From positions 1-35,002 of IMG/VR virus record IMGVR_UViG_2534681936_000014: a stretch of DNA of 35,002 nt, one strand, 5' to 3'. The notes beneath the pieces were generated by a model. The model was not told the DNA's origin, ran no database searches, and saw nothing but the letters and a program-made list of their open reading frames with translations. Below are positions 1 to 14,857 of this stretch, piece after piece. Numbering within the stretch: position 1 is the stretch's first letter; each line of letters begins with the position of its first letter. The DNA comes from a virus. Taxonomy: Duplodnaviria; Heunggongvirae; Uroviricota; Caudoviricetes. The position numbers were made by a program, and so were the translations under genes.

Positions 1-780
1 TTACTCTGCGTCTACCATGTCACATGCAAATTGAGTGTGTTTATATTCAGAATCAAATTTTGGTTCAATTACTTCAAGACGCATGTCACCTTTTTTGCTT
101 ACCCAGATGTTATAAGTGTTAACACGTCCAATAGTATCCTGTTTGGATTTACCTTCCATTGCGTTTGGATTCTCTTTAGATGGCTTGAGACTTGATTTAT
201 AAACATCATACTTGTCGGAATACACAAAAGATACCGGAACATCGTCTACCATTTTGATCTTAAGTTTACCGCCGTTATTATCAAAAGTTTTGTTTCCGTA
301 GAGTTTATCTTTTACAGCTTCTGTTTCCTCACCATCGATAACTTTCCATGTAAATTTTGTAGTACATGCGTAAATCGCGGTAACATTCAGTTTCTTTACT
401 TCTTCCTGTTTCGGTTGTTCTTCTTCAACCTTCGCAGAAGTCTCTGAATCGCTCTCTGACGCGGTTTCTTCTTTAGATAATACATTCATCAAGTTTTGGA
501 TTTGAGCGTTGTATACAGCCTCCAGTGGCTGAATCTGCCCGATATTGATCATTGTATCACGAACAGTTTTATTCCAGTTGCGTTGCTCTTGTTTCAGAGA
601 TGGATCAATCTTAACAGCTTTAACATATACTTCATGAAGTTTCGAATCCAGTGCGGAGATAGACTCGTTAGCACAAATAAACTTCTCTGATTTGGTAGTA
701 GCCTTAGTGCAATCAAAGGACGCAGCATCAGCACCGAAAGCAGTAGCAGAAAGCACGATAGCAGCGATAATGTTTTTCAT
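1..780 (-). CDS. Secreted/periplasmic protein, N-terminal domain resembling DUF1311 (LprI-like lysozyme-inhibitor fold)
   Basis: 259-aa ORF with ATG at 778-780 and AGAGG RBS; N-terminal signal peptide MKNIIAAIVLSATAFGADA; motif FDCTKA..E..IC...L..LD..L...Y...QR.W recalled as typical of DUF1311; C-terminal half unassigned. Confidence 0.55.
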   Translation of the reverse strand: MKNIIAAIVLSATAFGADAASFDCTKATTKSEKFICANESISALDSKLHEVYVKAVKIDPSLKQEQRNWNKTVRDTMINIGQIQPLEAVYNAQIQNLMNVLSKEETASESDSETSAKVEEEQPKQEEVKKLNVTAIYACTTKFTWKVIDGEETEAVKDKLYGNKTFDNNGGKLKIKMVDDVPVSFVYSDKYDVYKSSLKPSKENPNAMEGKSKQDTIGRVNTYNIWVSKKGDMRLEVIEPKFDSEYKHTQFACDMVDAE

Positions 781-1138: not shown

Positions 1139-1693
1139 ATGAAAGAAGAATTAACCCTTACAGAAATTTCCCGTTTATACGGCTATTCATTGAATGGTGG
1201 CGCTAAGCGATGGATAGAAAGGGGATTGCCATTTAACACCAATACCCGCCGCGTGCCAGCCAAAGAAGGAACAGAATGGGTCTTGAAAAATATTATCAAC
1301 CCGCTTAAACAAACTTCTATCAAAGAACAAATCGATGTAGAGAAATTACGCCGTGAACGTGCTTTAGCAGATGCAGCCGAACGAGAGAACCAGGAAGCGA
1401 TGAACCTCCTGATTCCGGTCGGTTATGTAGAACAGGAGCTAGCTGAATATTGTGGGAAGGTGAAGCAGACTATCTTGCAGATTTGTACGATCGATGCTTT
1501 AGAAATTCTCGAATCTGCTACCGATCAGAAAACATTGAAGAATAAGCTAAGGGAGATCATCGAGCGTCGTTTAAATGAAGTAGGGGACTTGTTCGAAAAT
1601 GCTGATTTGGGAGAAGACGAGGAAGAAGAATTACCATTAATGGATGAACCGGAACAAGAACCAGAAGAAGACGATGAATTTGATGTGTCTTAA
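1139..1693 (+). CDS. HTH DNA-binding protein with acidic C-terminal tail; Nu1-like, possible terminase small subunit or early regulator
   Basis: 184 aa; N-terminal winged-HTH-like segment LTLTEISRLYGYSLNGGAKRWIERGLPF followed by ERALADAAERENQE, similar in architecture to lambda Nu1; own terminator at 1741-1773; lies 6 kb from the large terminase gene. Confidence 0.45.
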   Translation: MKEELTLTEISRLYGYSLNGGAKRWIERGLPFNTNTRRVPAKEGTEWVLKNIINPLKQTSIKEQIDVEKLRRERALADAAERENQEAMNLLIPVGYVEQELAEYCGKVKQTILQICTIDALEILESATDQKTLKNKLREIIERRLNEVGDLFENADLGEDEEEELPLMDEPEQEPEEDDEFDVS

Positions 1694-3949: not shown

Positions 3950-4138
3950 AAGTAGATTCCTCAAATGTGGATTAATAAGGACAATAAAAAGAGCTTTTCG
4001 CCCTCGATACTTCTATTTATAAAAGTCATTTCAGAAAACCCTGTAAAACCACTGTATATCTGATCAGTGGGAGCACGAATTGCTAAAGAGAAGATTAATA
4101 ATTAATCAATTCGTACATTATTCAATCGAAAAGGCACT

Positions 4139-4172
4139 GTATGTTTAACCAGTGCCGTATGTGTTAACAGTG
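4139..4172. repeat. Imperfect tandem direct repeat, 2 x 16 bp (GTATGTTTAACCAGTG / GTATGTGTTAACAGTG), each containing a GTTAAC-like palindrome
   Basis: Read directly at 4139-4154 and 4157-4172 in the ORF-free region. Confidence 0.6.
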
Positions 4173-4306
4173 AATCAGGGGATTTTCAGAAGTGAACAAT
4201 CATTTCATGCATGTATTTATACACGAAAAAATCTTGCTTATCATCAATATGGGGATTGTTTCGAAAATTTCAACCCCTACCAACGAGAAAAAGTATAAAA
4301 TAATCC

Positions 4307-4320
4307 TTGACAGTTGTCAA
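4307..4320. promoter_or_regulatory. Perfect 14-bp palindrome TTGACAGTTGTCAA (operator-like; contains a TTGACA -35-like hexamer on both strands)
   Basis: Read directly; a related inverted repeat TTGTCAA-N6-TTGACAA occurs at 5702-5721. Confidence 0.45.
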
Positions 4321-4345
4321 TACACTTGACCTAAGCGAGAAATGA

Positions 4346-4517
4346 CTATCAAAATTTTTGTGTGAAAATGGCGGATAACGATTATCAACCTTTATAACCT
4401 ATTATAGCACGGCGACCTTTTGATAATTCTTTTTAAATCATGCATTTACAGCGATTTTTGGTGATTTTCCGGTTAAATAATATACAAGAATTTTCTATCA
4501 AAATTTTTGATGAAAAA
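4346..4517. repeat. Pair of 23-bp direct repeats (CTATCAAAATTTTTG[T/A]TGAAAA) 149 bp apart flanking an AT-rich segment with TTATCAA DnaA-box-like motifs
   Basis: Copies at 4346-4368 and 4495-4517 differ at 1-2 positions; GATTATCAAC (4380-4389) and TTGATAATTC (4421-4430) in inverted orientation between them. Confidence 0.55.
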
Positions 4518-4638
4518 CCTACACTACAAACCTACGCTTTAAAGGGATTGGCCTACACTACACTAGCCAGTAAACCTACACTATAACACCCTCAAACCTA
4601 CACTATGAAACCTACACACCTACACTAACCCTACACTT
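4518..4638 (+). repeat. Iteron-like array: 7 or more copies of CCTACACTA (variants CCTACGC, CCTACACACC, CCTACACTT) with irregular 10-30 bp spacing
   Basis: Copies read at 4518, 4531, 4552, 4575, 4597, 4611/4618 and 4629; all in one orientation; no ORF. Confidence 0.7.
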
Positions 4639-5211
4639 CAATCTCATAATTGTATGATCTTGAAAGACATTTCACCCCACAGACCATAGAATATAAAATT
4701 CGAACTAACGTTCTCCTTTTTGCTCGTTTTCTCTCACTACGTTCAAGAAAGATCTCGCAAAAAGAATACGGCGTAGCCGTGCGCGAAGCGCCCATCAACA
4801 CCTTCTAAGACCTGCAAGCAGGATTCGAAAGGGATTGGATAGTTCGCTTCGCTCACGTTCACGCCTACGGCGTTCACTCGCTTTTGAAAGGATTTTCTTA
4901 GAAAGGGATTTAATACTAGTTACTAACTGATTCTAGTAAACGAACGAAGTGAGTAACAATCACTTTCTAGAAAGGTATTGGTATCCCTTCGGGATTGCAA
5001 CCTTCGGTTGCTAAATTGCTTCCTGATTATTATTTCTCCAAAAGAAAGATTCTTATATTCTAAAGATACTTCTTCGTTTTGATGATGATTTAATCAAATC
5101 ATGAAGGAGGGCTTTGCCCGACTGAATACAATCACTCTTTTCATAATAACAAGAATTTTCTCTTTATAAATAATATTAGATTGATTCACTTTCTTTTAGA
5201 GGATTTCCACT

Positions 5212-5559
5212 ATGAACCATAAAATGACTACCACTACTCCTTTCATCCTGTTAGGTTTTGATGCTGATAGCTTCCACAATGACAAGTTAATGAAGATGTT
5301 CCGTGAACGTGGTTACAACATTCTTTTCAACTCTGATGAATCTCATTTCTCTAGTGCATGGTATGCGTTTTGCCGTAATAAGAAGCCGACCATTGTTGTT
5401 AACGTCTTCACCGATGAAGAACGCTTAAAGTACCAGAATCTACCAGCAATTATTGTTCGTGATGATCTGCCGTTTCAAGTCCGTTCCGGTGACATTGATC
5501 TGGGTAGCTTCGTTACTGTCTATGAACTGGATGAAGCAATGTTTAACTACGGCAAATAA
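5212..5559 (+). CDS. Hypothetical protein (115 aa)
   Basis: ATG at 5212 with AGAGGA RBS; the TAA stop is followed in frame by a 39-codon acidic extension (see findings). Confidence 0.5.
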   Translation: MNHKMTTTTPFILLGFDADSFHNDKLMKMFRERGYNILFNSDESHFSSAWYAFCRNKKPTIVVNVFTDEERLKYQNLPAIIVRDDLPFQVRSGDIDLGSFVTVYELDEAMFNYGK

Positions 5560-5701
5560 CCCGCTCAGGAAGCCCCAGAACAAGATGAACAAGACGAAGA
5601 TGACGACGACTACGCACCAATCTGTTTCTCTTCTCAGAATGGCTTCTACGGTTACGATGAAGGCTTAGATATGCTGTAAGTTAGGTCAACCCTTTGGCGT
5701 C

Positions 5702-5743
5702 TTGTCAAGGGGTATTGACAAAATTTTATGACTTTTTATGATT
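5702..5743 (+). promoter_or_regulatory. Candidate sigma70-type promoter (TTGACA-16bp-TATGAT) overlapped by inverted repeat TTGTCAA-N6-TTGACAA
   Basis: -35 TTGACA at 5715-5720, -10 TATGAT at 5737-5742; inverted repeat 5702-5721; about 60 bp upstream of the 5801 ORF. Confidence 0.45.
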
Positions 5744-5800
5744 GTTGCACTTGACAACTTTGAACCTATTTGACCTAGATTTGTAAAAAGGATGTTAATT

Positions 5801-5947
5801 ATGAACACTACTAAGAAAATTGATGGACGTAAAAACCCGAACCGCAAACCGTGGACCCCAAACCTGAATTTCTCAATGGTTGACTTCCATGAACGCCAGC
5901 GTCGCATTCAAGAAGAAATTGATCGCGCGATTGCTGAATCTAAATGA
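5801..5947 (+). CDS. Small basic protein (48 aa), unknown function
   Basis: ATG at 5801 with AAAAAGGA RBS 7 nt upstream; translation MNTTKKIDGRKNPNRKPWTPNLNFSMVDFHERQRRIQEEIDRAIAESK; below ORF-track cutoff. Confidence 0.4.
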   Translation: MNTTKKIDGRKNPNRKPWTPNLNFSMVDFHERQRRIQEEIDRAIAESK

Positions 5948-6045
5948 GATAAAAACTTCTTATAAATAAAATTGTTCCGGTGATGCTGCCGGAACTAGGA
6001 GGATCAATATCATTATCGCAAAACCGTTTAAGGGGAATTACTACT

Positions 6046-6879
6046 ATGAATACTGTTACTACTATGAATACTGCTGTTAAAACTGCTTCCGTGTCTCTGG
6101 TTGTTGATAACGAAGTTGCAAAAATGACTCTTCGTGAAATTGCCGACCTTATTGGAGTTCGTTTTTCAAACCTTGAAACTTCTATGAACCGACTGGTTGA
6201 ACGCCAAGTTATCCGAAAACCTGCAACGCAGAATTTCGAGAAAATCAATAACTTAGGGTTTGCTGTTACTGTTAAAGATTATGTGTTTGAGGGTGAGCAA
6301 GGTCGCTTAGATTCGATTGTCTTGATTGCTCAAAACGTACCGGAATTTACTCGCCAACTGGTTGACCGTTGGAATTATCTGGAAGAGAAACTGAAAACCG
6401 CCAATAATACTCCTGTTAACCCGTATGCAGACTTTGAAGAAACCGATTGGATCGAACTGGCATTAGATGAAAAACGCAAAAATAAAAAACTGATTGAGCT
6501 ACACATTCGCAAATCCGTAGATAGCCATTCTATGACACGTCTGTTAGGCGCTAAAAAGGGCGCTACGAAGGTTAAAGAAGCACTGACGGCCTTACGTACT
6601 GCTGGATACATTGAGCGCGTCTATGATGAAAATAACAAGCCGTGTGGGTATGTTGCTAATGACTCTTCTCTGTCTTTCTGCCGCATGAATGCTCACTACC
6701 AACTTGAGTTTACTGTTGATGTTCTTCCGGTGCTGGTTGAATTGGGCGTTTTGGAAGAAGAACAGAAAGCAACTCTTAAACTACCGCAGCCAAATAACAC
6801 TATTCTGATTCAAAACAAAGCTGCTAAACAGATTCGTGAATCAGGTAACGTAATTTCCCTTGTTGATTTTGGGATCTGA
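6046..6879 (+). CDS. Putative phage regulatory protein (Rha/antirepressor-like N-terminal HTH segment); function uncertain
   Basis: Internal ATG at 6046 with AAGGGGA RBS (ORF-track start 5980 is a GTG); segment MTLREIADLIGVRFSNLETSMNRLVERQ resembles Rha-type DNA-binding domains from memory. Confidence 0.45.
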   Translation: MNTVTTMNTAVKTASVSLVVDNEVAKMTLREIADLIGVRFSNLETSMNRLVERQVIRKPATQNFEKINNLGFAVTVKDYVFEGEQGRLDSIVLIAQNVPEFTRQLVDRWNYLEEKLKTANNTPVNPYADFEETDWIELALDEKRKNKKLIELHIRKSVDSHSMTRLLGAKKGATKVKEALTALRTAGYIERVYDENNKPCGYVANDSSLSFCRMNAHYQLEFTVDVLPVLVELGVLEEEQKATLKLPQPNNTILIQNKAAKQIRESGNVISLVDFGI

Positions 6880-7877: not shown

Positions 7878-7962
7878 ACAACCCCCTTTGATTAATACCC
7901 GTATTTATCAAAATATCAACAATTTAATAAATACCTTCCTATTTCGTAATGAGGGTAATTAC

Positions 7963-9870
7963 ATGAAACTGATTTCTAATAAGGCAAAATTAAAAAAGAT
8001 TCTCAGAAATGCAGCCAAATATATTACGCCACCGCCTAAACTCCTTCCGTCTGAATGGTGCGAAGCTAATATGGTGCTGGTAGATGGTCCTCAAGCTGGG
8101 GATAAAGTTAAATTGTTGTCATTCCAGAAAGGTATGATTGATGCTCCTTTCCTTGAGAACAAGAAAAAGTATGTCCTGATGACCAGTGCGCAGATCGGAA
8201 AAACTACCATCCTAAACGGTATCCTGTTTAACCAGATGGCTAACGATCCATGCAATATGATTATCGGACAATCAACCGCTAAAGAAATGTCTCAATATCT
8301 CGCTGGTAAGATCCGACCGTCTATCGAAGCATGTGATGCATTAAAAGACGTGGTTACAGACAAGAATGATCGCAATGCAGTTAACAACAATAACCAACTC
8401 CAGCTAAAAACGAATCACTTCCTGTACATGGTATCGCTTACCAGTCCATCAACCCTACGCGGTAAGACCGCAAAGGTTGGATTACTTGACGAAATCGATG
8501 CTGCCACAGCCTCAGAAGAAGGTGATCCGGTGGCACTGGCTGCTAACCGTTTAACTACCTTTGGCGATGAAGGTCGATTAGTCGTATCCAGTACCCCGAC
8601 CAGTAAGCTGGGAAGCATTAACCAGCAATGGTTATCAAGCGATATGCGTATGTTTTTTGTTCCGTGTCCTCATTGCGGGGAACACCAGGTGATCGAGTGG
8701 GAAAACGTACAGTTTGAATGGCGTAACATCGATGGTAAGAACTTACCCGATCCTGATACCGCTCGTTATATTTGCCCCCACTGTAAGAACGCATGGACCG
8801 AAGGGGAACGAATCAGGGCAGTAGCACAAGGCGAGTGGAGAGCAACCCGTGAAAGTGAAGTAGCCGGATTCTGGATCAGTCGTCTGTATTCACCTTTCAG
8901 CACGATCCGCGCTTGTGTGGTTGATTTTAGTCATGCGTGGCAATCCTTTGATTTACAATCATTTTATAACACCGTATTAGGCAAGGTATACGACGATCAG
9001 GACACGGCAGTAGAAGCAAATGAACTGGAACAACTCAAAACAGATGTTTCTATCGAGAATATCCCTGATGACGTGATTTTCTTGTGCTCAGGAATTGACC
9101 AGCAATTAGACCGCGCAGAGTCTACCATCTTAGGTGTAGCGAAAGATAAGGTTTACATTCTGGATCACCGCAGCTTTTACGATCATAACTGTGAACGATA
9201 TGAATCACCTGTTTGGGATCGTCTGGTTAACTTCAAGAAAACCAAATTCTATAACGTTAATGGTGAACGTGTGCCAATGCTCGCCAGCTTCCTTGATACA
9301 TCGAACGGTCGATTCACTCAAGCCGGATACCGTATTTGCGGCAAGTGGAAGAACCTACACGCTATCAAGGGTAGTTCATCTGGTAATGCTCCAGTAATTC
9401 CGGTTAAACCTACCCGCACAGGTGGTCATGAATTGCTTATGTTGGGTGTTAACGTTGGTAAATCCGCTGTTCGTGAAATGCTGGTTAGAAACCTGAAAGA
9501 CAATCCTCACATCGGCTTAGAAATATCAGAAACCGTTCCTGATGATTATCTCGATCAGCTTTTGAGTGAATCCATCAAGCGTACTACTACAGGTGTGCGT
9601 TGGGTGAAAAATCCAGGTAGTACCCGAAACGAGGCTCTCGACTGTCTGGTTTATAGCTATGCTGCTTCTCGCTACGTCCTTTCAAAAATGTCATGGGATA
9701 AACTCATTGCAATGAAAGACAGCTTAAACCGTGTTGTCGAAGAATCCGTAGAAGCTCCTAAATCGCAATCTGACGAGCAAATCGAAGAAACTAAGCCAAT
9801 CACACGACCGCAACGTCAAAACATCGCCAGACGCCCAAATAGAGGCCGTAGCTGGGTAACATCGTTCTAA
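7963..9870 (+). CDS. Terminase large subunit (GpA-like)
   Basis: 635 aa from ATG 7963 with GAGGGTAA RBS (ORF-track start 7888 is a TTG); Walker [12 protein letters not shown]; Cys-rich zinc-ribbon-like segments CPHCGEH...CPHCKNAW; size and gene order match a lambda-type large terminase. Confidence 0.88.
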
Positions 9871-14160: not shown

Positions 14161-14451
14161 ATGTTCAAATTATCAGAATCACAATTAAATCGAATGTTTA
14201 AAAGTGCTCCTGTATTTTCGGTGGAAGGTGGTAAATCAATTCGTGCTTACCATGAAATTACTACTACCGACGAACAAGGGGTAATTACAGAATCAGAATT
14301 TCTATTTTGTCGTGAGGGAGACTTAAATCAGGGTGATGTTGTCATTGTAGACGGTGAACGCTTCAAAGTTCAATACGTTAAGCGCAATGGTGATAATACT
14401 TCTGATTGCTTTATTGCTCGTGCAGGGGGTACACATGCTCGCTACCGTTAA
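14161..14451 (+). CDS. Putative head completion / head-tail connector protein (96 aa)
   Basis: AAAGGGGGTAA RBS; position immediately after the capsid gene; assignment positional only. Confidence 0.5.
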   Translation: MFKLSESQLNRMFKSAPVFSVEGGKSIRAYHEITTTDEQGVITESEFLFCREGDLNQGDVVIVDGERFKVQYVKRNGDNTSDCFIARAGGTHARYR

Positions 14452-14857
14452 TAATATGCCTAGACTGAAAATCAAACGCGCCTTGCAGGATATTATCGAA
14501 CAAGATTTAGGTCTGGCTTTAAACGTAGAACAAACTCAGCAAGGCTTTAGTGATGACGTGGTTTGTTGGATTACCGGAATGAATGAGACTTATACGCGTG
14601 TTCGTGGTGGTAATGCAATGCAAGCTGAATGCGTTATCGAAATGCAGTTATATTCTCAGATTCATGAAACGAAAATTCATGAGGGTATTTGCCAGATAAT
14701 CCAGATTCAGCCGGATAACCCACGTTTTAAAGATTTGGGCTTCGCTATTTCAGATATCACTCCAGTAGCTTCTAATACCGATTATGACGATGATTCTAGT
14801 GATGGGGGTATCGTTGGGACACTTAGCCTTAAATTTTCTTATGTAGCGCGTTTTTAA
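14435..14857 (+). CDS. Putative head-tail joining / tail completion protein (140 aa)
   Basis: ATG at 14435 with AGGGGG RBS, overlapping the upstream gene by 17 nt (the ORF-track start at 14354 lacks an RBS); positional assignment. Confidence 0.5.
   Translation: MLATVNNMPRLKIKRALQDIIEQDLGLALNVEQTQQGFSDDVVCWITGMNETYTRVRGGNAMQAECVIEMQLYSQIHETKIHEGICQIIQIQPDNPRFKDLGFAISDITPVASNTDYDDDSSDGGIVGTLSLKFSYVARF

Follow-up and report, generated by a model that had tools for sequence, protein, structure and literature searches.

Ochre mutations in the decaying prophage genes of E. coli follow a familiar pattern: a single base creates the stop, the reading frame downstream of it stays intact, the mutation is specific to a clone and other independent lesions accompany it. 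A quite different situation in which an in-frame extension follows the stop of a phage-derived gene is that of the coat/A1 locus of Qbeta, where the stop is conserved, the UGA that is read through is leaky and the extension is needed. At the level of protein architecture a further comparison is offered by SSB and by T7 gp2.5, both of which have a disordered, acidic C-terminal tail with a short hydrophobic peptide for docking at its tip; the likeness of the family treated here to these two is one of architecture and not of homology.

The locus that we analyze here lies in a stretch of 35,002 nucleotides (IMG/VR record IMGVR_UViG_2534681936_000014, positions 1 to 35,002; hereafter the window) that matches the chromosomes of E. 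coli O55:H7 strains DEC5A (CP038394) and FDAARGOS_946 (CP065607) at 100% identity. Its gene content is that of a siphovirus-type temperate prophage of E. coli. We regard it as nearly certain that the gene beginning at position 5212 and the 39 codons that follow its stop are a single ancestral prophage gene of 155 codons, truncated by a young CAA>TAA mutation in one E. coli clone. This truncation is an ordinary, young lesion of the pseudogene type, which has in common with the other prophage ochre mutations all the traits listed above and differs from them in nothing of substance; what is special here is the placement of the stop, precisely at the junction between a predicted folded domain and its tail. 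The comparison with Qbeta, in contrast, goes no further than the in-frame extension, since the stop in this case is a UAA present in one clone and all of the relatives have a sense codon in its place. The features of the locus and of the prophage around it are collected in table 1.

The frame past the stop and its intact relatives

The initial annotation of the window had noted that the frame continues beyond the TAA for 39 codons, without a stop or an ATG. The 39 sense codons are indeed there and their translation is exactly PAQEAPEQDEQDEDDDDYAPICFSSQNGFYGYDEGLDML, but an ATG does occur among them, at 5671-5673, where it is the penultimate codon of the remnant and encodes the Met of ...DML. 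The same annotation had considered so biased an acidic composition unlikely for random AT-rich DNA. The charge of the remnant is indeed unusual; its length is not. At the base composition of the window the probability of finding no stop in 39 codons is ~0.08, and among the six-frame open reading frames of the window that reach 100 aa, 22% continue past their stop for at least 39 codons. With 13 D+E and 0 K/R, on the other hand, the remnant has a net acidity equaled by just 0.43% of the stop-free 39-aa windows in all six frames. That it is genuine coding sequence follows from its DNA, since the 39 codons are 100% identical to codons 117-155 of the intact orthologs.

Table 1. Positions in the window of the truncated gene, of neighboring sequence elements and of selected prophage genes.
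Feature	Position	Strand	Remarks
Premature ochre stop, TAA	5557-5559	+	From CAA (Gln116) via a C>T transition at 5557
Gene codons 1-115, the part presumably still translated	5212..5556	+	ORF list; annotation of CP038394 and orthologs
Ancestral codons 117-155, now a presumably untranslated remnant	5560..5676	+	DNA 100% identical to intact orthologs
Original (ancestral) TAA of the full-length gene	5677..5679	+	All intact orthologs end there, after ...DEGLDML
Peptides of the 5212 gene			...AMFNYGK (C-terminal, non-tryptic end); YAPICFSSQNGFYGYDEGLDML
LprI-family gene	1-780	-	Adjoined by hicA/hicB
ORF with small-terminase-like match	1139-1693		phrog_57, E 1e-11; the sole such ORF
28-nt motif related to the 5702-5777 boxes	4306-4333		CTTGACA...TTGACCTA
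ORF-poor stretch, ~1.26 kb	3950-5211		Directly upstream of the 5212 gene; no ORF of at least 60 aa
Iteron-like direct repeats	4515-4641		AAACCTACACTAYAA, four copies
Further repeats	4825-4979		TAGAAAGGGATT, three copies, ~70-nt spacing
Intergenic region just 3' of the ancestral stop	5702-5777		Palindrome TTGTCAAGGGGTATTGACAA; repeated TTGACA/TTGACC boxes
Sigma-70 promoter, near-consensus (11/12)	5715-5742		Ahead of a small basic gene (5801-5947)
Rha/anti-repressor-like gene	5980-6879
Large terminase subunit, lambda-gpA type	7888-9870		No Nu1-like gene directly ahead
tRNA-Glu(UUC) called by ARAGORN, 91 nt	14622-14712	-	Inside ORF 14354-14857
Portal; major head protein; tape measure; tail fibres; large serine recombinase			Other prophage genes

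When the two halves of the protein encoded in the window were joined and queried against 5.8 billion proteins, 78 clusters were recovered, nearly all of them from E. coli or Shigella, and ~68 of these are single full-length proteins of 141-158 aa that align across both halves. In the relatives codon 116 specifies either Gln, with Pro next, or Glu, with Thr next. An exact look-up revealed that the two halves joined by a Gln constitute an existing protein of 155 aa (P0096), which at least 43 contigs encode; the same protein collection has no version with Glu, Lys or Tyr at the joint.

At the DNA level, the gene of 468 nt differs from the window at one position in eight assemblies that encode P0096, and this position is 5557, a C in all eight and a T in the window. 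In the closest three of them the flanks are 99.95-99.97% identical, with 2-10 differences over ~11.7 kb, and in this flank comparison with the closest intact relatives the window alone has a T at 5557. In a further 19 more divergent orthologs, from 8 complete E. coli genomes and 11 IMG/VR contigs, codons 116-117 are always CAA-CCC or GAA-ACC, and the gene ends in every case with ...DEGLDML-TAA. Thus, position 116 is occupied by a sense codon in 27 of the 27 orthologous DNA loci read and by a premature stop in none, and the outgroups all have C or G at the site equivalent to 5557. Because the intact orthologs differ only at 5557 and the divergent ones retain a sense codon, this comparison of sequences shows the CAA (Gln116) to TAA change in the 5212 gene, a C>T at 5557, to be derived and recent. 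Among the explanations that the initial annotation had proposed, it is the recent nonsense mutation, cutting short a longer gene, that these data bear out, by a single C>T against orthologs that are otherwise identical. It had also named as counter-evidence a stop that was conserved among orthologs and followed by a frame that was not; the orthologs present the opposite situation, with an unconserved stop, a strongly conserved frame and one continuous protein in the great majority of the clusters and in every DNA locus. A scan of species-representative genomes found no relative.

Database annotation of the two alleles also differs. In RefSeq the coding sequence of the truncated allele begins at the second ATG, at 5224 (WP_225877499.1, 111 aa), whereas for the intact orthologs the same pipeline takes the ATG that corresponds to 5212 (155 aa). 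Neither of the truncated entries, from DEC5A and FDAARGOS_946, carries a RefSeq pseudogene flag, a point against our reading of the allele.

Sequencing error, recoding and selection as alternative explanations of the stop

Since only one base separates the window from its very close relatives, the T might be thought to be an error of sequencing or assembly that conceals a true CAA codon and an intact gene, as had been suggested at the outset. This we consider extremely unlikely. The change is a substitution, and not the homopolymer indel that is the typical error of long-read platforms. Moreover, the same TAA occurs in five separate assemblies from different times and projects (AIFQ01, the 2012 draft of DEC5A; CP038394; CP065607; UGDO01, from the NCTC; and SRR15415546), which are identical over the stretches compared; it is because the same substitution recurs in five projects that an error can be set aside. 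The T at 5557 is a clonal polymorphism. DEC5A and FDAARGOS_946 are reported to belong to a single clade, ST7444 (PMC9413875). If the stop is real it might still be recoded, and the other early suggestion was readthrough, in which a near-cognate tRNA would decode the TAA at some frequency, giving isoforms of 115 and 155 aa. In its favor, the frame past the stop is open and encodes a conserved peptide, and the base directly 3' of the TAA is a C, one of the weaker 3' contexts for termination in this species. We nonetheless judge programmed or functional readthrough to be very unlikely. The absence of the stop from all 27 orthologous loci means that no element can have been under selection to act together with it, and the youth of the mutation fully accounts for the open frame, the gene having no other change. 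The RNA 3' of the stop folds no better than its shuffled counterparts, no downstream structure being found in 5545-5700 (z = +0.68 against shuffled controls). In addition, the two release factors RF1 and RF2 both recognize UAA (PMC5373646), and the readthrough that ribosome profiling has detected in E. coli was at UGA and became undetectable with a non-K-12 RF2 variant (PMC5373646). To decoding by a suppressor tRNA, or to a reassignment of TAA that would make the triplet at 5557 a sense codon, we assign a practically negligible probability: in the window ARAGORN reports one doubtful tRNA-Glu(UUC) and no UUA anticodon, Rfam reports no tRNA, the standard code gives uninterrupted frames for the long structural genes (up to 1248 aa), which have PHROG matches from end to end and ordinary stops, and the terminal stop of the orthologs is itself a TAA.

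Another view of the stop accepts it as real and holds that it was selected: loss of the tail would have been favored, for example by relieving a toxicity to the lysogen or by removing an autoinhibitory or targeting peptide, and the domain of 115 aa would be a functional neo-allele. Such a history might produce a stop placed as this one is, right at the predicted boundary of domain and tail, with the folded domain left whole; and independent lesions recur in this gene among other E. coli prophages, perhaps because it is costly to the host. Yet only one clone has the TAA allele, the intact form is far commoner (P0096 occurs in 94 index blocks, the truncated form on 5 contigs) and the other lesions strike different parts of the gene, the domain included, as they do in neutral prophage decay. 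Selection for the truncation is on these grounds unlikely, and the preferred reading remains that of a young nonsense mutation in one clone.

Two candidate ways around the stop were rejected. Bypass of the stop by a +1 frameshift at AAA-TAA would lead the ribosome into a frame (ORF 5453-5668) that encodes NPLRKPQNKMNK... (NPLRKPQNK...) and not the conserved tail, and no stimulator resembling a Shine-Dalgarno sequence was found upstream of the AAA-TAA. As for internal re-initiation, the sole in-frame start past the stop is the ATG that lies two codons from the end.

Other alleles of the gene are damaged in other ways. Frameshifted versions of it exist in other E. coli prophages (P0044, P0075, P0076, P0101 and P0102), and N-terminal deletions (P0093, P0094 and P0078) leave only the open reading frame of the tail, of 46 or 62 aa, on 47 and 25 contigs. 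In two relatives an element of the IS3 family is located in the neighboring upstream region (L003, 1534-2696; L019, 2312-3474). To judge from the sequences, the multiple independent lesions look like the neutral decay of a dispensable prophage gene.

The prophage around the gene

A search of phage GenBank DNA gave no match to the locus and only trivial matches to the packaging genes, and thus no sequenced free-phage relative was found there. The small-terminase-like open reading frame is situated ~6 kb upstream of the gpA-type large terminase gene, and the interval between the two contains divergently oriented genes and the ORF-poor region. Just outside the left end of the window, in CP038394, there is a hicA toxin gene followed by a hicB antitoxin gene that RefSeq records as an incomplete pseudogene (L001, 290-598); both adjoin the LprI-family gene. 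One of the closest intact relatives (L014, GCA_025588515.1) is missing ~125 nt at the equivalent of 6606-6730 of the window, a gap that falls inside the Rha/anti-repressor-like gene, and no gene is called there in that assembly. This loss is another sign of ongoing decay in the prophage lineage. The tRNA called by ARAGORN is probably a false positive, as the Rfam tRNA model is below its gathering score at that position, and between them Rfam and ARAGORN detected no credible tRNA or ncRNA in the window.

The position of the gene within the prophage is conserved, even in distant relatives: it comes after an ORF-poor, repeat-bearing stretch of ~1.3 kb and before a Rha-type regulator. One distant prophage relative (L023) has a comparable gap at the same position, with no called gene between 3593 and 5001. 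The ORF-poor stretch of the window had no match in an Rfam search; candidates for its role are a cos/packaging site, an origin and a regulatory region. The motifs of the intergenic region past the ancestral stop and of the upstream copy at 4306-4333 look like shared operator/promoter sites.

There is also a mosaic boundary inside the 5212 gene (~5404-5950), where megablast matches to more divergent prophages begin at ~5404-5443 and run through the intergenic region. The small downstream protein WP_001098357.1 is identical in several prophages that have a divergent copy of the 5212 gene. Synonymous divergence among the orthologs is 0.45 in codons 1-115 versus 0.11-0.17 in the tail, and the dN/dS of ~0.3 obtained for the tail in a codon-level comparison is derived from few changes, pS there being 0.11-0.17.

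The tail and the probable consequence of its loss

The architecture of the full-length protein was modeled with AlphaFold2, from an alignment of 68 sequences and with a 97%-identical intact ortholog as the target. Residues 7-115 are predicted to form an alpha/beta domain, with alternating strands and helices and a block pLDDT of ~68-84, and residues 116-155 are predicted to be disordered (pLDDT <50), so that in this model the premature stop coincides exactly with the junction of domain and tail. The tail consists of an acidic linker and then a C-terminal motif, DDDYAPICFSSQNGFYGYDEGLDML, which is the best-conserved part of the family and is almost unchanged in four distant full-length relatives that are 35-42% identical overall; the terminal peptide, DDDYAPxxFSSxGGxYGYxEGLDML, is almost invariant in the family.

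This family is a very narrow one. An exhaustive search of 1.84 billion representatives found 11 members, and added only three distant full-length ones. The full-length protein gave only sub-threshold matches in Pfam and none in PHROGs, NCBIfam or PADLOC; the best hit of a sequence profile search of the PDB had an E of 0.21, and with Foldseek the model gave no significant match (best E 0.087 in the PDB and 0.029 in BFVD). The generic alpha/beta matches of Foldseek, to P-loop or helicase-lobe-like structures (E of at least 0.03, TM of at most 0.39), were not used. With SSB and T7 gp2.5 the intact family shares the succession of a globular domain, an acidic disordered linker and a short conserved aromatic/hydrophobic peptide, which in SSB is the DDDIPF tip. 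Unlike SSB, however, the family is without an OB fold and has no match in sequence or fold to SSB or to any solved structure, and its DDDY-AP-I-x-F element is internal and not at the very C-terminus.

The sequence of events that emerges from these comparisons is a simple one. The C>T at 5557 arose in the clade that includes O55:H7 DEC5A and FDAARGOS_946, changing codon 116 from CAA to TAA. Ribosomes would then stop at this TAA and release a product of 115 residues, or of 111 if the second ATG is used, consisting of the predicted folded alpha/beta domain alone, and the acidic linker and the conserved C-terminal peptide would no longer be made. That the 117 nt past the stop still resemble a perfect coding sequence is due only to the youth of the mutation, which has left no time for further decay.

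Since the C-terminal motif of the tail is the most conserved part of the family, a loss of function is likely; the dN/dS of the tail is further evidence, on few changes, of its importance. We infer that function requires the tail, which would probably serve as a short peptide on a tether, docking with a partner protein, and that the TAA allele is a loss-of-function, or at least an altered-function, allele of a non-essential prophage gene. The tail-less protein is most likely inactive or altered, and with the predicted folded domain left whole some activity may remain. A bolder view, which we think quite unlikely, is that the intact family represents a new effector of the tethered-peptide type, docking with a hub protein of the host as a mimic of the SSB tail or the FtsZ tail, or that the tail-less form has been selected in the lysogen; if the effector part of this view were true, DEC5A would carry a naturally occurring mutant of such an effector that lacks its tail.

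For an ordinary young nonsense mutation, which is the explanation that we favor, the consequences are both general and particular. An open and compositionally biased frame past a stop is usually the mark of a young nonsense mutation and not of recoding. In the databases, WP_225877499.1/EHV26542.1 of DEC5A and FDAARGOS_946 are best treated as entries for a truncated allele of a prophage protein of 155 aa. For the study of this prophage protein family, finally, DEC5A provides a ready-made natural mutant that lacks the tail.
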